This document shows positions 1 to 8,881 of a DNA stretch of 64,000 nucleotides, one piece after another. The position numbers and the translations under genes are program-made. Position 1 is the stretch's first letter. Every line of letters starts with the position of its first letter. The stretch covers positions 752,319-816,318 of the forward strand of contig CAVVBP010000007.1 of assembly GCA_963746535.1 (NCBI GenBank), in the 5' to 3' direction. The DNA is from Vicinamibacterales bacterium. GTDB lineage: Bacteria > Acidobacteriota > Vicinamibacteria > Vicinamibacterales > JAMQPK01. The notes under the pieces were generated by a model. The model had not been told where the DNA came from. It did not search any database and saw only the letters and a program-made list of their open reading frames with translations.

Positions 1-118
1 GCGGCGATCCCAAGGTCAGAAGCATCACAACAGTCGGAAGTTTGTGGACACACTGAACGGTCGCACCATCACGAGGGAGACGCTCTCGGCGCGCCAAGCC
101 CCCGCGGCCAGGCAGTAA
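1..118 (+). CDS. C-terminal end of an unidentified CDS entering from the left edge
   Basis: Open frame from nt 2 (...KFVDTLNGRTITRETLSARQAPAARQ) to TAA at 116-118. No family is recognisable from 38 residues. Confidence 0.2.
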   Translation, partial: RRSQGQKHHNSRKFVDTLNGRTITRETLSARQAPAARQ

Positions 119-266
119 CGAGCATCAATCCGGGATGGCCGAAAGCCGTGAATTTGTCTCAAAATGTCTCAAGACTTCGTTCCACTATCTGCTACATTTC
201 CGGTCTCACTCAAAACTGGACGTAATTTTCCTCCTCGTCACAACGCAACACTCAGGAGGGGCAAGT

Positions 267-3200
267 ATGAAGAAACGAACGGGATTGCTGCCGGCGCTTC
301 TGGCTAACGTTCTTCCCGGGCTTGCGATGGTTTGCGTTGTTCTGGTCGTGCCGCTGTATGGCCAGGTTGAGCGGGCGTCGATTGTCGGCACTGTAACAGA
401 CACGTCCGGAGGAGCGATGCCCGGTGTCCAGGTGGAGGTCACCAATGAAGCCACCAACACCACGACCCGATTGGTTACTGACAGCGCCGGCTCGTACTCG
501 GCGGTGAATTTGATTCCGGGCAGCTATACCGTGGGCGCTTCCCTGCAGGGATTTCAGCCGAAGGCTTTTCGCAACTACGTGCTGCAGGTATCCCAGAGAG
601 CGCGCCTGGACATTACACTCGCCGTAGGCGGTCTGGAGCAGGCAATTGACGTGATTGCGGCGGCGCCGCTGCTGCAAACGGAGAATGCGTCGATCGGTCA
701 GGTGATCAGTTCCGAAGCCGTGAATGCGCTGCCACTGAACGGCAGGAATTTCGTCCAACTGGCGATCCTGGCCCCTGGCGTGACCGGGCTCGACTACGCC
801 CAGCAAAACACGATCAACTCCGGACGAAGGCCCGACGAGCTGCGGCCCGGAGGTACGACGCTTCAGGCGAACGGCGCCAGCAGCTGGAGCAATCAGGTGC
901 TGATCGATGGGATCGACAACACCGAGATGATCTCGCAAACCTTCGTGGTCCGGCCGGCGGTGGAGGGCATCCAGGAGTTCAAGGTGATTACGAACAATGC
1001 CGGAGCGGAGTACGGCCGCTCGGCGGGCGCAGTGGTCGTGGTCACGACGAAGGCGGGCGGCAACAACCTTCATGGGTCGGTGTTCGAGTTCTTCCGGAAC
1101 AGCGCGCTGGACGCCAGGAATTACTTCGCGAATCCGGATTTTGACAAGCCTCCCTTCCGCCTGAACCAGTACGGCGGAAGTCTCGGCGGGCCCATCGTCA
1201 AGAACCGCACATTCTTCTTCGCGACCTACGAAGGCTACCGGGAGGTCTTCGGAGACACCCAGTTGGTGACGGTTCCCACGATGGCCATGCGGCAGGGAAA
1301 CTTCCAGGGTGTAACGCCAAACGGCATCTACGATCCGATGACCACGCGGCCGAACCCGAACGGTACCGGCGTGATTCGTGATCGGTTCCCGAATGACATC
1401 ATTCCGCCGGAGCGCTGGGACAGAATCGGAGCTGCTCTGATCAATATGTATCCGGCGCCACAGAACTCGTCCGTGTTCAACAACTATGTCGCGAACCCGA
1501 AGAAGGTGAGCAACATGCATCGGGCGGATGGACGCATCGACCATCAGCTGACAGAGAGAGACACGCTGTTCGGCCGCTACTCAATCGATCGTGGGTTCCT
1601 CACCATCCCCGATACGTTCAATACGGATATCGGCGGCAGCCCCGCAAGCTTCGCCGGAGACAATGACGTGAAGGGACAGAACATGGTTGGTTCCTGGACA
1701 CGCCCGCTGTCCTCGAACCAGGTGTTGGAAGTCCGGTATGGCTACACGCAGTACGATATGGCTCTGATTCCAACCCAGCTGACCAACGCACTGTGGCAAA
1801 CCATCCCAGGCCGCAACAACAGCGACCCCTATCAGCCTACGGCGCCGATCATCGACCCGTCGGATCGCGTAGGTCTGGGCAATGCCCGGTCCACCCCGCT
1901 GATCCGTAACCAGCACATGCATGAGGTCATCGGCAACATGAACTGGCAGCGGGGCTCGCATAACATTCTTTTCGGCGCTGACATTCGCTGGCGGCGCACG
2001 TCGGAAACGGCAAGCCCTCCGGGTCAGAGCGCATTTGGCCGGTGGAATTTCAGTCCGGCATGGACGCGCAGCACCGTATCGGCGGGAGGGACCGGCGACA
2101 CGATGGCGGCGATGCTGCTTGGGTTTCCCGACGCCATCGTGAGAGATGTGTTCACGCCCGGCACCGCCGTTCTGCGAGCCTCGGAGAGCAATTTCTACAT
2201 TCGCGATGAATGGCGCGCGAAGCGCAATCTGACCCTGAATATCGGACTGCACTATGAAATCAACACCCCGTTCGTGGAAGACGACGACGTGTGGGCCAAC
2301 TTCGACCCCGCGACGGGAACGCAACTGCTCGCGGGCCTGAACGGCGTTTCGCGAAGCGGCAACATCAAGACGGACTACCGCGCAATCGGGCCGCGACTTG
2401 GGTTCGCGTACACGCCGCAGAGCAAGATGGTGGTCCGCGGCGGCTTCGGACTCTTCTACGCGCCGCAGGGTAACGCCGCCACGAACATACGCCAATTCCG
2501 TCAGCCGCCATTCGGCTTTCAGGTGAATGTTCCCATCAACACCAACGGTGTTCCCGTAAACCGCTTGACGGATGGTTTCCCGACCGTCGTCACCACGCCG
2601 AACTTGACGCAGGGGCCGCCGATTTACTCCCTCATGGGAGTCGATCCCGATTACCGGAACGCGCAGATGATGCAGTTCAACCTTGCGGTGCAACGCGAAC
2701 TGGACCGCCGCACGGTGGTGACGCTCGGGTATGTGGGCTCGCTCGGCCGTTATCTTGCGTGGGCGCGTCCGCTGAATGCTCCTGATCCGGGACCGGGCGC
2801 TCTCGATCCGCGGCGGCCTGTACATCAACTACCTGCCCGGCGTTGCAAATATCAACTGGCTGGAGTCGTCCGGTACGTCGGAATACAACTCGATGCAGGC
2901 GTCGGTTGAACGGCGGTTTGACCGGGGATTTTACCTGCTCTCGAACTGGACGTGGTCCAAGGGTTTCGACAATTTCGGCGGCGACGGAGGAGCCGGTGGC
3001 CCTGTACCGCAGGACCCGTTGAATCGCGATGCGGACTGGGGGCCTTCCAATAGCGATATACGCCATCGGGTGAATGTGGCGGGTACCTGGGAACTGCCAT
3101 TCGGGATGGGACGCAAGTGGCTTCACGAGGAAAACATCGCGTCCGATGTTCTCGGCGGCTGGGACTTTTCCGGAATCATGGTGTTCCAGACGGGCCTGCC

Positions 3201-3594
3201 GTTCACGGTCACGGCTCCCGGCTCACCAACCAATACGGGCAGGGGAGGCCGGGCAGATGTCGTATCCGGACAACCGTTGTATCCAGAGAATCAGACGATC
3301 TCGCAATGGTTCAATCCCGACGCGTTCAGCACTCCAACCGCGTTCAATTGGGGCAACTCATCGCGGAACGTGCTCCGCGGACCTGGAAGGACGAACGTCG
3401 ACTTGACCCTGGCCAAGGGTTTTCGGCTGGGGCAACAGCGGGTACTTACATTCCGCACGGAAGTGTTCAATGCGTTTAACACTCCCCAGTTCGCTCTCCC
3501 CGCTGCGGCTGTGGGTTCCGGGAATATAGCCACGATCACCAGTACGGCCCGGGCCAGCCGGCAGATTCAGCTGGCGCTTCGGCTGACATTCTGA
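267..3594 (+). pseudogene. TonB-dependent outer-membrane receptor with N-terminal carboxypeptidase-regulatory-like domain; reading frame broken near 2812-2822
   Basis: ATG at 267 follows AGGAGGG (254-260). Signal peptide, then IVGTVTDTSGGAMPGVQVEVTN...GSYTV (CarboxypepD_reg-like). The barrel continues in another frame (ORF 2776-3594) and ends in the typical ...QIQLALRLTF terminal Phe. The two ORFs overlap and switch frame after ...PGPGALDPRRP. Confidence 0.85.
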
Positions 3595-3879
3595 CGTGGC
3601 TGCGAGAAATACTATCGGCGCCAGGGTTACGAGATCCTCGAATGCTTTCACGAGGAAGGCGAGAGCGCCAACTGTCGACTGAACAAGGGCCGCGTGCATT
3701 TCGTGGTCGTGTTTAATCTGACACTCTTCGCGCGTGACAAGTACGACCACTTCGCGCTGCGTTCGCACCTGCAGTCGCCCGGCATTTCCCTGCGTTCCGC
3801 GACGGAACCGACGAACAGACGTCAAGGTGAGAAGCGGTGTCTAATCAGGTCGAGGAGGTGCGGCGATGACGACTCTTAA
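3595..3879 (+). pseudogene. Remnant of a serine recombinase (resolvase-type catalytic domain), 5'-truncated and degenerate
   Basis: The translation directly after the receptor stop reads CEKYYRRQGYEILECFHEEGESAN...VHFVVVFNLTLFARDKYDHFALRSHLQSPGISLRSATEPTN. This follows the resolvase pattern (Y..RQGWEIV..F.DEG.SA ... D.VVV..LDR.SR ... L...GI.L.S.TEP.D). The N-terminal catalytic Ser segment is absent. Confidence 0.5.
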
Positions 3880-4087
3880 CGGCTGGCAACGGATTTGGCT
3901 ACTAGCTTCGATTCTTTGGGCAGTTGTGATCCTGTTACTTGCAGGGATTCTTCAGCCGGACCGCGATCAGACCGTCCAGAGCGCCCTGTTCGTGGTGCGG
4001 CTGTGGATCGTCCCAGTCGTGGCGGTTTATGGGTTCGGCCTTGGCCTCGCTTGGGTCCGCCGCGGATTTCGAGTCGAGTCAAAGTAG
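3866..4087 (+). CDS. Small membrane protein (two predicted TM helices), unknown function
   Basis: GAGGAGG lies 6 nt upstream of ATG 3866. Hydrophobic stretches are IWLLASILWAVVILLLAGIL and LWIVPVVAVYGFGLGLAWV. Confidence 0.45.
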   Translation: MTTLNGWQRIWLLASILWAVVILLLAGILQPDRDQTVQSALFVVRLWIVPVVAVYGFGLGLAWVRRGFRVESK

Positions 4088-4151
4088 CCCACTACCGGAT
4101 TCAGCGTTCTCCTTGATCGCTGGGATGAGTCCATATAGGCAATGTTAGACG

Positions 4152-4379
4152 CTATTTCTTGTACTCCTCGGCGTCGACCTCGAAGGTCTGGCGCGGTCGC
4201 AACCCAAGCTCAAGTTTTTCAAGCATGCCCCCCAGCTTCTCACCATCGACCAATTCGATTGGCGGCGCCCCGTCTCGCACGGCCTCTTTCCGCGCCTCGG
4301 ACGTGAACGACCCGGTAGTGATGATGATGCCCTTGTCCGAATCGCGAGGCTGGGGTTGAGATACACGTTCTGAATTCAC
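4152..4379 (-). pseudogene. C-terminal fragment of an Mrr-like type IV restriction endonuclease
   Basis: KGIIITTGSFTSEARKEAVRDGAPPIELVDGEKLGGMLEKLELG matches the conserved Mrr_cat C-terminus (G.FITTS.FS..A...A......IELIDG..L..LL). The catalytic N-terminal part is missing; the fragment abuts the next gene. Confidence 0.55.
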
Positions 4380-4414
4380 CTGAGCAAAGCGGTATCAGGA
4401 GGGGGACAACATCA

Positions 4415-5404
4415 ATGGATTTGCATAAGCTGGTTCCGGTTCTGCTTCTCACCATGGGTGGGGTTCTGCTCCCAACGCGCATCGGTGCCCAAGCGCCTTC
4501 GGCGCCGGCATTTCCGAAATCCATTCCAACGTCGCCGGGACCGAAGACCAACCTGTTTCCTCACCTGATGACGAAAGCCGAGGTCCTCGCGGCGTTGGCA
4601 CAAGTGCAGGATTCACAGGACCTCGTGGTGAAGACTAATTTCGCCATTACACTCCGCGCCGCGAGCAACAAGACAAAGCTACCGTGGAAGTTGCACACAG
4701 AGGCCGATGAGCTGTGGTTTGTGTACAAGGGATCAGCCAAAGTCACCCTGGCTCCCTTCTCATTACAGGTGGGAGTGACGCCGCCGGGAAGCACCTATGA
4801 TGCAGCGGAAGGGGACATCGTGAACGTCCCGCGCGGGATGGCCTATCAGGTTATGCCGGCCGGCCGCTTCGAATATGTTGCGGTCCGGAAATTTCTGATC
4901 CCGCCCCCACCTACCGGACGAGGCGGTGGCGCGCCCGCGCAACAGGGACCACCGCCGACGGTGGTGACCAAAGCCGAGATCGACAAAATTTACGCCACAG
5001 CCACGGCGAGCGTGCCCATCTATCCTGGGATCACGGCGAATCTCTACGACGGCGGACCAAAGGGCGTGAAATGGGGTCCCCAGCCGGGCGGTCCCGTGGA
5101 AAACCATGAACGCGATGAGCATCTTTATATTGCGACGTACGGCCAGGCGAAGGCCTACATGGACGGCTTTATCACCGATGGGCATTGGGATAGACGTGGC
5201 GTGATGGGACTCGGGACCGCAGGTTCTACCGAGTACACGATGAACCCAGGCGATCTCCTGTTCGTCTTCCGAAATACGCTGCACTATATCGTCCCAATTC
5301 CAACGACAGGTAAGGCTGGCTACTTCCTTGTGAGTTTGAATGGGACGACCACGGAGCAGTCTCTGCCGAAAGCGATCATTCCGAATGGCGGAGGGGCCTA
5401 CTAG
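4415..5404 (+). CDS. Secreted two-domain cupin-like protein, paralogue 1 of 3
   Basis: Signal peptide. Cupin-like strands HTEADELWFVYKGSAKV...GDIVNVPRGMAYQV...FEYVAVRKF, and a second domain ENHERDEHLYIATYGQAKA...PGDLLFVFRNTLHY. Strongly similar to ORF 6370-7341. Confidence 0.8.
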   Translation: MDLHKLVPVLLLTMGGVLLPTRIGAQAPSAPAFPKSIPTSPGPKTNLFPHLMTKAEVLAALAQVQDSQDLVVKTNFAITLRAASNKTKLPWKLHTEADELWFVYKGSAKVTLAPFSLQVGVTPPGSTYDAAEGDIVNVPRGMAYQVMPAGRFEYVAVRKFLIPPPPTGRGGGAPAQQGPPPTVVTKAEIDKIYATATASVPIYPGITANLYDGGPKGVKWGPQPGGPVENHERDEHLYIATYGQAKAYMDGFITDGHWDRRGVMGLGTAGSTEYTMNPGDLLFVFRNTLHYIVPIPTTGKAGYFLVSLNGTTTEQSLPKAIIPNGGGAY

Positions 5405-5451
5405 GATGCTCACGTGCGCTTTGTATTTCTTGATTGGAAAGGACTAGGGCT

Positions 5452-6369
5452 ATGAACCGTTCACGGACTGTCGGGATAGTCGCGGTCGCGTCGTGCGTCC
5501 TCGTGCTGGGACTGGCCTCCAGCCGTGTGAACGCGCAAGCCAAGTTGACGAAAAACTTGTTTTCGCACGTGATGAAGAGCGCGGATGTCGACGCGCAGTT
5601 TGCGAAGATCAATGATTCCTGGGATGTGTATACGAAGACGAATCATGCGGTCACGTTCCGTGTGAACACGAAGAAACTGCCGCCGACGAATCATGAGGAG
5701 GCTGATGAGTATTGGTTTGTACGGAAGGGTTCGGCCAAGGTCAGCCTCAAGACCGGAACGGCAACTGCCGACGCCCCACACGATGTCGCAGCTGGCGATG
5801 TGGTGTATGTCCCGAGAAACGTCCCCTATGAGATCGATCCGGGTGCAACCCGTTTTGAGTATGTCGCTCTTCGAGTATTCACACCCCCGCAACTCGGGAG
5901 AGGCGCAGGAGCCGGCGCGGCCGGGGCAGCTCAGCCCGAACCTACGTCGTATTTCGCAGCGAAGGCTCAGATCGACCAAACGTTCGCCACAGCACCGCAG
6001 TCTACCCAACTGCGATTTCCGCGGGGTGGCAGTGTCAACATGATCATCTACAACGGCGCGACTGGCCCCTACGAATCGCATGAGGCAGTAGACCAGATCT
6101 ATTTCGTGCGTCATGGAACAGCCAAGGCGGCCATGGACGGCCGACTCGTGAATCCCACCGTAACCGGCCCAGGTCAGATACGCGGAACCGGATACATCGA
6201 CAGCAGCGAGTACACCATTGCTCCTGGTGACATCGTCTGGATTCCGCGAAATCAACTGCACTTTGTGGATCCCGGCACTGCGAGGATTGGATATTTTCTG
6301 GTCGGTTTCCCCAGCTCTCAGTCTGGCTTTCCGGAGCCACCTGATGGCGGGCGAGGAGGTGGACAGTAG
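5452..6369 (+). CDS. Secreted two-domain cupin-like protein, paralogue 2 of 3 (more divergent)
   Basis: ATG 5452 after GGAAAGGA (the ORF track starts at TTG 5434). Signal peptide VAVASCVLVLGLASSRVNAQA. Motifs NHEEADEYWFVRKGSAKV, GDVVYVPRNVPYEI, FEYVALRVF, HEAVDQIYFVRHGTAKA, PGDIVWIPRNQLHF. Confidence 0.8.
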   Translation: MNRSRTVGIVAVASCVLVLGLASSRVNAQAKLTKNLFSHVMKSADVDAQFAKINDSWDVYTKTNHAVTFRVNTKKLPPTNHEEADEYWFVRKGSAKVSLKTGTATADAPHDVAAGDVVYVPRNVPYEIDPGATRFEYVALRVFTPPQLGRGAGAGAAGAAQPEPTSYFAAKAQIDQTFATAPQSTQLRFPRGGSVNMIIYNGATGPYESHEAVDQIYFVRHGTAKAAMDGRLVNPTVTGPGQIRGTGYIDSSEYTIAPGDIVWIPRNQLHFVDPGTARIGYFLVGFPSSQSGFPEPPDGGRGGGQ

Positions 6370-7341
6370 GTGAAATTTCTCACTGCCTCGGGCGTCTTGT
6401 CAGGGCTGTGTCTGATATCTGCAGTGCACAGTGCGGCTCAGGTCTTGAGTCCTCCAAAATTTCCTGAGACCGTGACGGTATCTCCAGGGCCAAAGACGAA
6501 CTTGTTTCCGCACGTCATGAAGAAAGCCGAAGTGCTTGCAGCCCTGTCGCAAGTCAAGGAGTCGCAGGATCTATTTGTCAAAAGCAACGCCGGAGTCGCA
6601 TTGCGTGTTGCTTCTAACACAATGAGGTTGCCTTGGAAACAGCACCTCGAAGCAGATGAACTGTGGTTCGTATATCGCGGCGCGGCGAAAGTGAGCCTGG
6701 CTCACTTCTCGCTGCAGCTGGGGATCACCGCACCCGGCGAGACCTACAGCGTGGGAGAAGGCGATATCCTCAATGTTCCGCGGGGTATCGCGTATCAGAT
6801 CATGCCAGGTTCCGAACGCTTTGAATATGTTGCGGTTCGAAAGTTTGCCATTCAGCGGCCAAATTCGCAGCAGACCGCAGCGGCTGGTGGCCAGCCAGGT
6901 TCTCCCGTGACGACAAAGGCACAGATCGACGAATGGTACGAGGCGGGCATTGCAGGTACTTCCGGCATCCCGCCGGGAATCAACAGAATCATCTTCGACC
7001 GCGCCAAAGGTCCTGACTGGCGTAAAGGCGGGGCTCCTGGTCCCTGGGAGAACCACGAGACTAATGAGCACCTCACTATTGTGGTTTACGGAACCGCGAA
7101 GGCCACTCTAGACGGCTTTGTTACCGGCGCGGCGTGGGACAATCGCGGCGTAATGGGTAGGGGCGTGGTCGGCGGCAGCGATTACACGGTCGGACCCGGA
7201 GACCTGGTTTTTGCTTTTCGGAATACCGCGCACTTTTTTGATCCCATCTCTCAGAAATTCGGGTACCTCCTGGTGGATTTGCCGCAAAGTGAGCGGTTCT
7301 GGCCTACATCGATAGTGCCCAATGGAGCCGGTCCGTATTAG
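6370..7341 (+). CDS. Secreted two-domain cupin-like protein, paralogue 3 of 3
   Basis: GTG start immediately after the TAG of the previous gene. Near-colinear with paralogue 1 (SPGPKTNLFPHVMKKAEVLAAL..., EADELWFVYRGAAKV, GDILNVPRGIAYQI, FEYVAVRKF). Confidence 0.8.
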   Translation: MKFLTASGVLSGLCLISAVHSAAQVLSPPKFPETVTVSPGPKTNLFPHVMKKAEVLAALSQVKESQDLFVKSNAGVALRVASNTMRLPWKQHLEADELWFVYRGAAKVSLAHFSLQLGITAPGETYSVGEGDILNVPRGIAYQIMPGSERFEYVAVRKFAIQRPNSQQTAAAGGQPGSPVTTKAQIDEWYEAGIAGTSGIPPGINRIIFDRAKGPDWRKGGAPGPWENHETNEHLTIVVYGTAKATLDGFVTGAAWDNRGVMGRGVVGGSDYTVGPGDLVFAFRNTAHFFDPISQKFGYLLVDLPQSERFWPTSIVPNGAGPY

Positions 7342-7714
7342 GACCAGAAGATCATCTGGAAACGCGGCTCGCTTCGAGGCCTCGCCGGGCGCCCTCCAAG
7401 GTAGGTCGAGAATAAGGGCCTCAGCGTAGCGCTGTGCCGCACCCTCTGGATTGTGAGATCCACTTCCAGCGCGGCCAGGTTCAAGTAAGACCGCGCACTA
7501 AAGGGATTCGCACGCAGCGCCTTCAAATGCTTCGCGCGGCGGTTGCAATTGCCCAAGGCTTGCGAGCAATGCACCGAGAAGATTCTCGGCACGTGAATGG
7601 CCCCGGCTCGTTACGCACCACGAATGCCGCGTCCTGGGCAGCGAGATCTGGTCGACCCTGTAGAAAATAGAGTGAGGCGCCGTCGGCGTTCACGATAGGT
7701 CGTACCCGATTTCG

Positions 7715-8650
7715 CTACTTCGCGGGCGCCTCGCGGACGAACCGCGCCGCATAGAGCGCAAGGTTGGAACCCGTGACCGCGTACGCTTCCGGAAGGAGCG
7801 TCATCAGCGTGGCCCCGGTGAGGCCCTGCTCGTAGGACACGAAGCGGTAGCGCGTGAGCTTGTCGCTCGGCCGCTCGTGGAACACGACCCACTCGCCGCT
7901 GAACTCGACCGTTCCCGCCGCCGCCGCGCGGACCACGCTGCCGCTGGACAGACCCTGAAACCTGTAGCTGTACCGTCCGTCGGCGGCGATGGAATAGTAG
8001 TCCCCGGCAAACGTCACCGACGTGCCGGCGTAGGTGCCGGTACTGCCATTCACATACGAAACGACACTCGCGCCTCCGGTCTTCCAGTCGCCAACGAGAT
8101 CCGCGACCCCGATCGTCGTCTTGATCGGCGCCGCATGCAGCGGAGCGATACGGACGCTGCCAATCACCATCCGCACCGTTTCATACAGGGCGTCGAGCAC
8201 CGCACGGTTGGGACCGACAACCACCACCGGAACGAACGTCGCGACACTGGGCCGCAGGATATAGAGGGCGACCTCCCTGGTGCGATTGGCCACGGCGCCA
8301 CCTGACCACTTCGCAGCATAGCCGACCGATCCGCGAACGTCGTAGATCGGCGACGGCAGCGACAGGCGGGGATCATTCTCGACCAGCGTGCGCCACGCAA
8401 TCGCAAAGTCCCTGTCGGCAGCGCCACTGCTCGGCTGAGGCGCCGTCAGAAGGATGATCAGGTACGCGCCATTAGTGTTCTGCCAGACCATCTCGGCGCG
8501 ATCAGGCGCGCTGGTCTCGTACTTCCAGCCGTCCGGCACTGCGAAGGACAGCGGCTCGATCGTCTTCACGTCGGCGATGGCGAGGCGAGGAAGCAGCGTC
8601 GCGCAGACGGCCACAAATAGGGTGACTGCGAGCGAACGCGTATAGCGCAT
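7715..8650 (-). CDS. Secreted protein of unknown function
   Basis: ATG at 8650 (MRYTRSLAVTLFVAVCATLLPRLAIA signal peptide) after a GAGAGGA-like RBS. No recognisable motifs. Confidence 0.7.
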   Translation of the reverse strand: MRYTRSLAVTLFVAVCATLLPRLAIADVKTIEPLSFAVPDGWKYETSAPDRAEMVWQNTNGAYLIILLTAPQPSSGAADRDFAIAWRTLVENDPRLSLPSPIYDVRGSVGYAAKWSGGAVANRTREVALYILRPSVATFVPVVVVGPNRAVLDALYETVRMVIGSVRIAPLHAAPIKTTIGVADLVGDWKTGGASVVSYVNGSTGTYAGTSVTFAGDYYSIAADGRYSYRFQGLSSGSVVRAAAAGTVEFSGEWVVFHERPSDKLTRYRFVSYEQGLTGATLMTLLPEAYAVTGSNLALYAARFVREAPAK

Positions 8651-8881
8651 GGTCACAGATCCTCTCGGTTTGCGAGCGGAGATTAGTCGAACCGATCGGG
8701 AAAAGGCAAACGAACATCGAGCGGCTGCGTGAGGCACTCATGCAACGTGCGAACAAAGCAAATGATGAACGAACGCGTTCTGAAGCTCAGCCTTCCAACG
8801 CTCTGCAAGTCATCGAGGCCCATGTGTCCTCGGTGACCGCGAATTGTTCGATGGGCGCAGACGGGCCGACGGCCCGACTCA

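Follow-up and report, generated by a model that had tools for sequence, protein, structure and literature searches.

Why does a soil acidobacterium carry three adjacent genes for exported, two-domain cupin-like proteins that fit no characterised family, and did these genes arise where they now stand? The question is raised by a stretch of 64,000 nucleotides from a member of the Vicinamibacterales (contig CAVVBP010000007.1 of assembly GCA_963746535.1; referred to as the window), in which genes A, B and C follow one another at positions 4415-7341. A preliminary description had taken them for a tandem triplication of one bicupin gene within a patch of low GC content. We find that A, B and C form an operon of anciently diverged paralogues. 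In the account that we favour, with a probability of about 65%, these old paralogues encode exported bicupins which belong to a transporter-linked module in related species, arrived in this genome as a truncated import, and would act as periplasmic metalloproteins.

Three exported bicupins of ancient divergence

In agreement with the preliminary description, the three genes are consecutive, lie on the same strand and have the positions and lengths listed in Table 1. Gene A has an AGGAGG sequence 12 nt 5' of its start, and gene C a GAGGAGG upstream of its GTG codon. For gene B a TTG at 5434 is also open, which would extend the product to 311 amino acids; the ATG at 5452 is preceded by the Shine-Dalgarno sequence AAGGA. 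Promoter and terminator scans of the locus yielded nothing above shuffled expectation, and none of the RNA runs could be shown to contain the sequence.

As read from the translations, the N-termini of A, B and C combine a positive charge, a hydrophobic core and an AxA-type cleavage site, and neither a twin-arginine motif nor a lipobox was found in them. Pfam searches gave only weak Cupin_2 matches, in both halves of the proteins (A, 25.6 bits, which is below the cut-off; B, 48.8; C, 34.1), and no NCBIfam family was matched above its cut-off by any of the three. AlphaFold2 models of A and B (predicted local distance difference test scores of 80.9 and 84.9, with barrel cores above 90) start with a helix, continue with a disordered linker and then form two β-rich domains. 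With Foldseek, both models matched MncA, OxdC, seed vicilins and YxaG with a probability of 1.0 at 10-16% identity. Based on the Cupin_2 matches in both halves, the two β-rich domains and the Foldseek probability, each chain is predicted to consist of two consecutive cupin barrels, that is, to have a bicupin architecture. The signal peptide and the two cupin-like halves proposed initially are thus borne out, and the three recurring motifs quoted along with them are present in each of A, B and C.

Pairwise identity is 57% between A and C and 44% between A and B, so that the first and third copies are indeed close to each other and the second is the divergent one. In a maximum-likelihood tree the B clade and an A/C superclade each received a support of 100, and within the latter A (99), C (100) and one more A/C-like clade are distinguished. 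Each of the clades A, B and C holds orthologues from several species (identified by tblastn and placed in the tree), with B and C of the window both being sister to genes of the related genome G018. The window copies are 88-97% identical to their G018 orthologues, as compared with 44-57% to the paralogues in their own genome. The order A-B-C recurs in G018, in G008 and on the metagenome contig L048; A-B pairs are present in G021, G003, G014, L028 and L029, and G010 carries B-C plus A-B. A and C are saturated at silent sites, and DNA similarity between the window copies has been reduced to fragments of 50 nt or less with about 74% identity. From silent-site saturation and the shortness of these fragments we conclude that the duplications predate the radiation of the genus. 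The phylogeny which the preliminary description had proposed for dating the duplications therefore shows them to be old, with orthologues of each copy in other species. The ratio of nonsynonymous to synonymous substitution rates (dN/dS) is 0.12-0.21 in comparison with G018 and 0.08-0.12 in comparison with G008; these values indicate that A, B and C are under purifying selection.

A family with close members in one genus

The genome under study contains just the three copies. Among 60 relatives the family was detected in 7 of 24 other species of the same genus (8 of 25 if this one is counted), always as arrays; the relatives that carry it are metagenome-assembled genomes (MAGs) of Vicinamibacterales. 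No match to the family profile at E ≤ 1e-20 was found among 400 other genomes drawn evenly from the Acidobacteriota (228 genera). Among the genomes searched, close members are confined to one Vicinamibacterales genus of soil Acidobacteriota. Distant homologues with 35-44% identity exist in MAGs of Terriglobia and Bryobacterales, where they are single-copy and B-like; it is because of this likeness that we consider the A/C type to have arisen later. Whether homologues are usually single-copy, as had been asked at the outset, thus has a divided answer: this holds for the distant homologues, whereas arrays are the rule within the genus.

Large protein collections contain 117 family clusters at 90% identity. 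A library of 50%-identity representatives yielded 39 representatives at E ≤ 1e-30, and the weaker matches in that library are mostly secreted monocupins of about 155 amino acids, which match the C-terminal barrel. Degenerate, frameshifted arrays were encountered in G024, G014 and contig 11 of G008. Literature searches combining bicupin with TonB, Vicinamibacter with cupin, or ureidoglycine aminohydrolase with bicupin retrieved no paper on the family. We regard the family as a new, lineage-restricted branch of the cupin superfamily.

Fold and predicted metal site

The register of the metal-binding motifs was set by the E-x6-G spacing together with a HMMER alignment to the monocupin 7zvy. In this register the N-terminal barrel (N-barrel) reads K/T92-x-H94-x4-E99-x6-G (K92 in A), with Y144 at the position of the motif-2 histidine, and thus lacks two of the three canonical histidines. 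The C-terminal barrel (C-barrel) reads E229-x-H231-x4-H236-x6-G and has kept H290; all B-type members have a glutamine in place of H236. The canonical motifs H-x-H-x3-4-E-x6-G and G-x5-P-x-G-x2-H were found in neither barrel. In a census of 119 family members, the three named clades show no variation at H94, D98, E99, R140, Y144, E153, Y154, R286, N287, H290 and Y303, K73, N75 and R81 of the N-barrel are also listed as invariant, and E229 and H231 are retained in all but one of the 119 members. This count of ligand positions substantiates the initial impression that the canonical histidine cluster of cupins is only partly retained. Taken at face value, the pattern suggests that the C-barrel binds a metal via E229, H231, H290 and H236 (Gln in B). 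The N-barrel would provide a charged, largely metal-free pocket, probably for an anionic organic ligand, or it may have a regulatory role.

Comparison with known cupins

The preliminary description had been unable to place the family, and no characterised family fits, be it oxalate decarboxylase, MncA, quercetinase or ureidoglycine aminohydrolase. When the PDB was searched by sequence, using the profile of the full-length family, no match had an E value below 0.08, and NCBIfam returned only sub-threshold fragments of oxalate-bicupin and mandelonitrile-lyase models.

MncA of Synechocystis PCC 6803 (Sll1358; 2vqa), a periplasmic manganese bicupin, is likewise an exported bacterial bicupin, has canonical metal sites in both barrels and is the best Foldseek match of A (E 2e-11). 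However, the template modelling (TM) score of 0.35-0.40 and the identity of 11-12% between A and MncA are no better than those obtained with OxdC or vicilins. Unlike MncA, the proteins described here have a Sec-type signal, an N-barrel lacking two of the three histidines and a permuted E/H/H(Q)/H set in the C-barrel. Export of MncA occurs via the twin-arginine translocation (Tat) pathway (PMC4192464), and an RR motif is absent from A, B and C, whose N-termini are Sec-like.

OxdC of B. subtilis (1j58, 1uw8) has the same bicupin fold (Foldseek E about 1e-10 for both A and B), yet TM scores of 0.38-0.44, root-mean-square deviations (rmsd) of 11-12 Å and different ligand sets set it apart. Against the oxalate decarboxylase/oxidase model TIGR03404, A scored 13.3 bits, B 19.9 bits and C gave no match, the cut-off being 254.2. 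The manganese site of oxalate bicupins, which comprises three histidines and one glutamate in both barrels, was not found in the 119-member census. The second barrel of quercetin 2,3-dioxygenase YxaG of B. subtilis (1y3t, 2h0v) is matched near motif 2 by the profile of the C-terminal half (E 1.4e-7), and Foldseek TM scores are 0.43-0.47; YxaG differs in being cytoplasmic and in having canonical sites in both barrels. A YxaG-type quercetinase was discarded because no more than about 35 residues around motif 2 align and the ligands of the N-barrel are lost. (S)-Ureidoglycine aminohydrolase (AllE/YlbA) was considered for its E-x-H...H site, which we take to be typical of this enzyme, and was rejected: alignment of family profile A2 with AllE of E. 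coli K-12 by hhalign gave a probability of 0.3% and an E value of 0.23.

The sole compact superposition was obtained with 3rns, a Cupin 2 conserved barrel protein of Leptotrichia buccalis (TM score 0.68-0.70 when normalised to the target, rmsd 3.8 Å, about 240 columns). This structural-genomics protein, of which 208 residues are modelled, has no known function or export signal and shares 10-12% identity. Small archaeal and bacterial monocupins (7zvy, 7zvm) and the secreted monocupins of about 155 amino acids have the C-barrel signature E/H-x-H-x4-D/E...H in common with the family, but consist of one barrel only. The secreted monocupins collected in alignment A3 (P0213-P0263) are widespread and uncharacterised, and they share the C-barrel signature in the form G-x2-E-x-H-E...D...G-D-x-V-x-I-P-x2-T-P-H...Y-F-x-V-K; profile A3 matched 7zvy with E 5e-10.

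Association with a TonB-dependent transporter

Fifteen loci were surveyed for their gene neighbourhood, all informative ones coming from a single genus. A TonB-dependent receptor of the CarboxypepD_reg/OMP_b-brl_4 type adjoins the array or lies within two genes of it at 12 of them. What is conserved in the genus is the succession of an A/C-type and a B-type gene, to which a third copy is sometimes added. This unit occurs in two gene orders, both built on one transporter clade: receptor-A-B-(C), then a convergent gene for a MFS/spermidine-synthase/TPR protein; and A/C-B-NHL propeller-receptor. The receptors of G018, G008 (both loci), G010, L028, L029 and L030 form this clade with 56-96% mutual identity, being only 25-31% identical to other receptors. 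These are the seven that were compared; L047 and L048, assigned by matching size and position alone, bring the total to nine. Because its receptors group together and far from other paralogues, we regard the clade as the cassette's own partner. Arrays next to non-cognate receptors are also maintained, namely in G021 and G003.

Further neighbours recur to a varying extent. The gene for the MFS/spermidine-synthase/TPR protein, an intact convergent neighbour of the cassette in relatives, is present at about 10 loci, and an NHL/SGL propeller gene stands beside the arrays of L022, L029, L030 and L047. Pyrroloquinoline quinone (PQQ) dehydrogenases are neighbours in G021 and L030, an enolase-superfamily protein is encoded in G021 and near L028, an aldehyde dehydrogenase in L030, and a two-component system with an NMT1_3 binding protein in G010 and G003. 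At L017 (14983-18406) and L019 (1450-4776) the cluster is flanked by genes for an NMT1_3-type periplasmic binding protein, a histidine kinase and an OmpR-type response regulator; this set is a candidate regulator of the module.

The arrangement is reminiscent of polysaccharide utilization loci (PULs) of Bacteroidota and of carbohydrate utilization (CUT) loci of proteobacteria, with which it has in common a co-oriented outer-membrane TonB-dependent transporter, exported processing proteins and, at two bicupin loci, the two-component system. By contrast, no SusD-like partner or glycoside hydrolases were seen at the bicupin loci, and the transporter is of the acidobacterial CarboxypepD_reg/OMP_b-brl_4 type.

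Frame breaks split large neighbouring genes and some bicupin genes in relatives (L015 10901-14060, L016 1764-7597, L020 8382-9479, L021 8596-10289, L022 9956-10666). The genomes compared are MAGs, probably assembled from long reads; some of the breaks may reflect genuine decay (G024, G008 contig 11), others indel errors of long-read sequencing.

Evidence for import into this genome

Base composition computed in windows across the genome is not uniform, and the block stands out. GC content is 58.7% in A, 57.8% in B, 56.3% in C and 57.5% in the block, as opposed to 64.2% in the genome (standard deviation 1.9 among windows of 2.9 kb), and no more than 0.4% of genome windows of this size have values as low as that of the block. 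At third codon positions the GC fraction is 0.61-0.67 in A, B and C versus 0.78-0.81 in downstream backbone genes. The low GC content noted previously is therefore real, but milder than the spot counts of 53-55% had suggested, and the dip exceeds the block, because the whole stretch 1-7700 lies below the genome mean. Arrays of the family in other genomes are also GC-poorer than their surroundings in 11 of 12 cases, by 0.4-3.7 points, which identifies part of the dip as a family trait. Low GC content thus has two sources: the family is slightly GC-poor everywhere, and this copy is a recent import.

The import is indicated by discordant similarities. Over 3.3 kb, positions 4391-7679 are 92.4% identical to G018, whereas the backbone of this genome (G000) is 77-80% identical to G018 where it matches at all. 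Conversely, backbone identity to the nearest relative, G021, is 86-98%, and the bicupin pair of G021 is only 72% identical to the window genes at the DNA level. Ordinary backbone DNA served as the yardstick, since rpoB is uninformative (92-95% to all five relatives). On the strength of this discordance, the cassette appears to be a recent, mosaic and truncated import from a more distant congener. In 100-nt steps, identity to G018 is 90-98% in B, C and the 340 nt downstream, but 77-96% in A. B and C have a synonymous divergence (dS) from G018 of 0.13 and 0.11, respectively, and A one of 0.50. The far stronger divergence of A indicates that the imported block is itself a mosaic.

Both gene remnants that had been suspected at the borders are real, the upstream one being Mrr/resolvase-like and the downstream one a MFS/spermidine-synthase/TPR stub. 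The resident receptor gene upstream of the block is 95% identical to its G021 orthologue over 90-3671, and homology ends at 3672. In G021 the receptor is followed by genes for an enolase and a PQQ dehydrogenase and then by A' and B'; here it is followed by the resolvase-like remnant, a repeated piece, the Mrr stub, a 35-nt receptor stub, the three bicupin genes and the MFS stub (Table 1). The segment of L015 to which the 35-nt stub corresponds (7855-7889) represents the last bases of the receptor gene of G018, and the stub is collinear with the main 92% alignment. The downstream remnant corresponds by tblastn to residues 951-1046 of a 1061-residue protein of G010 and has 90-93% DNA identity to G018. 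No flanking (att-like) direct repeats were found around the block. The resolvase assignment is based on a match of 21.6 bits, below the cut-off of 23.3, that spans 23-114 of the 145 profile positions. The Mrr_cat stub is unambiguous, yet Mrr is a defence gene and not a mobility gene.

Orthologues of the cognate partners were not found in G000, the best candidates being a receptor at 30%, an NHL propeller at 40-45% and a MFS/spermidine-synthase/TPR protein at 44%; the cassette is thus separated from its usual partners in this genome. The resident receptor is only 27-30% identical to the cassette-linked clade, and so it is not the usual partner. Its frame is broken by an extra T at 2819 (within 2776-2909), which the G021 orthologue lacks, as do all contigs that cover this position in four independent soil metagenome runs. 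The extra T thus probably reflects a mistake of assembly or a mutation private to this genome and not a fixed pseudogene.

Table 1. Features at the left end of the window
Feature	Position	Strand	Basis and remarks
TonB-dependent outer-membrane receptor (CarboxypepD_reg + OMP_b-brl_4)	135-3594	+	Pfam; resident, frame broken at 2819
Serine-recombinase (resolvase) remnant without N-terminus	3595-3876	+	Pfam Resolvase E 2.4e-4
Small repeated piece with 73-residue open reading frame (3866-4087), two transmembrane segments	3829-4097	+	97% to unlinked place in G021
Mrr-type restriction endonuclease, C-terminal stub	4152-4379	-	Pfam Mrr_cat E 1.1e-7, positions 76-114 of 115 only
3'-end stub of donor-type (cognate) TonB-dependent receptor gene, 35 nt	4339-4373	+	91% to L015 7855-7889
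Putative imported mosaic block	4391-7679	n/a	B, C and downstream stub 93-98% to G018; A 77-96%
Bicupin A	4415-5404	+	329 amino acids; Sec signal, Pro-rich linker, N-barrel, C-barrel
Bicupin B	5452-6369	+	305 amino acids from ATG; divergent type, Gln at H236 position
Bicupin C	6370-7341	+	323 amino acids; GTG start directly abutting stop codon of B
MFS/spermidine-synthase/TPR gene, 3' remnant, stop-riddled	7342-7679	-	tblastn; DNA to G018

Proposed role and alternatives

We propose that A, B and C act in the periplasm as metalloproteins. The constant pairing of an A/C-type with a B-type gene suggests that the products form a hetero-oligomer or catalyse two consecutive steps. The substrate would most likely be a small organic acid, sugar lactone, sugar acid or chelate, taken up by the TonB-dependent transporter. 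The narrower assignment as periplasmic metalloenzymes acting on an organic acid, sugar lactone or sugar acid imported in this way is tentative, and we rate its chances somewhat below even.

Several points weigh against the account that we favour. Function has been read from fold, conserved residues and neighbouring genes, and the metal site of the C-barrel is predicted solely from motif register. Global TM scores to known bicupins are 0.31-0.47, which means that the placement of the barrels relative to each other is either unreliable in the models or differs from that in known bicupins. The informative loci all belong to one genus, and the conserved neighbourhood may in part be inherited synteny and not functional coupling. 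Of the short soil-metagenome contigs aligned with the region, not one provides an independent bridge across the junctions (3672, about 4340 and 7679). Finally, this genome lacks the cognate transporter, and in the assembly the reading frame of the neighbouring receptor is broken.

For the last two reasons the cassette may be idle in this genome. It might be an orphaned cassette undergoing decay, or else the low-GC block might be an assembly chimera of two co-occurring Vicinamibacterales populations; we consider this unlikely, and the estimate concerns this copy alone and is compatible with any functional reading. Truncation of both donor neighbours, the lack of orthologues of the cognate transporter, the NHL protein and the MFS/spermidine-synthase/TPR protein in the assembly, other scars in the region, the degenerate arrays of G024, G014 and G008 contig 11, the junctions left unbridged by independent contigs and a depth that differs between receptor and block in other soils speak for this alternative. 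Yet the three open reading frames are intact and equipped with ribosome-binding sites and signal peptides, and dN/dS values are low (0.12-0.21), even if the divergence on which they are based is mostly older than the import. Two joins within 4 kb, each inside a gene, would be needed to produce a chimera, and G021 and G003 demonstrate that arrays are kept beside non-cognate receptors elsewhere, too.

With regard to function, the proteins might bind or buffer metals in the periplasm without being enzymes, similar to cyanobacterial MncA/CucA, within a module for the uptake of a metal or metallophore. The TonB-dependent transporter would import a chelate, the MFS/spermidine-synthase fusion would make or export a polyamine-like ligand, and the bicupins would receive the metal. 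MncA as top Foldseek match of A (E 2e-11) and the recurrence of the transporter and of the spermidine-synthase-like fusion as neighbours are consistent with this scheme, as is export via Sec, which for CucA entails folding and metal loading in the periplasm (PMC4192464). Against it stand the TM score of 0.38 and the identity of 12% to MncA, equalled by oxalate decarboxylase and seed vicilins, and an N-barrel which lacks most ligands and in which numerous invariant residues (Arg, Lys, Tyr, Asn) suggest that the ligand is organic. Moreover, the neighbours include PQQ dehydrogenase, lactonase-like, enolase and aldehyde dehydrogenase genes, a set suggestive of carbon catabolism, and neither a metal regulator nor an ABC importer for metals was seen nearby. 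A role in metal handling appears improbable.

It is tempting to speculate, if at slightly longer odds still, that the bicupin pair, the dedicated transporter, the NHL propeller and the MFS/spermidine-synthase/TPR fusion constitute an undescribed envelope module. Such a module could operate by one of two routes: a heteromeric bicupin with a single permuted metal site might convert an imported sugar lactone, sugar acid or organic acid in a novel reaction, or the module might serve metallophore-like acquisition of a chelate whose metal is passed on to the bicupins.

Oxalate is abundant in soil, and A, B and C could be exported oxalate decarboxylases or oxidases of the OxdC or germin type that degrade it. 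The Foldseek matches of both models to B. subtilis OxdC (E about 1e-10) and weak TIGR03404 matches speak in favour of this function, which is nevertheless very improbable: the TIGR03404 scores of 13.3 and 19.9 bits, with none for C, are far from the cut-off of 254, K/T and Y replace two of the three histidine ligands in the N-barrel, Glu replaces the first histidine and His/Gln the glutamate in the C-barrel, and no formate or oxalate genes were seen nearby. That a single bicupin gene was recently triplicated in tandem within this genome, as three adjacent same-strand homologues of similar length had brought to mind, can be dismissed almost entirely, as every copy is closer to orthologues in other species than to its own-genome paralogues, A, B and C sit in three deep, well-supported clades that occur in the same order in other species, and inter-copy DNA similarity is almost gone.

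Vicinamibacterales are abundant, rarely cultured soil bacteria with numerous TonB-dependent transporters, the majority of which lack a known substrate. The transporter clade described here, being accompanied by a fixed pair of exported bicupins, offers a concrete, testable handle on one such uptake system. The family also adds to the cupins a predicted rearranged metal site that is kept in one barrel only, and the locus is a clean, small example of what appears to be cassette exchange and mosaic recombination between congeneric soil bacteria. Its value is incremental, as nothing here overturns current understanding.

Other features of the region

The piece at 3829-4097 has its G021 counterpart at C9:225292-225560, and metagenome contigs diverge from it in three ways after 4094-4096, which suggests a small repeated or mobile element. 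The locus seems to have been rearranged between G000 and G021, because the same segment lies on opposite sides: in G021 (L018 7683-8061) it is located to the right of B', and in G000 (C7:751373-751751) it precedes the orthologous receptor on the left, roughly 600-950 nt ahead of the window start. Directly past the right border of the import, positions 7715-8737 on the minus strand encode a secreted protein of 340 amino acids that belongs to no Pfam family and is 98% identical to G021 contig C4.

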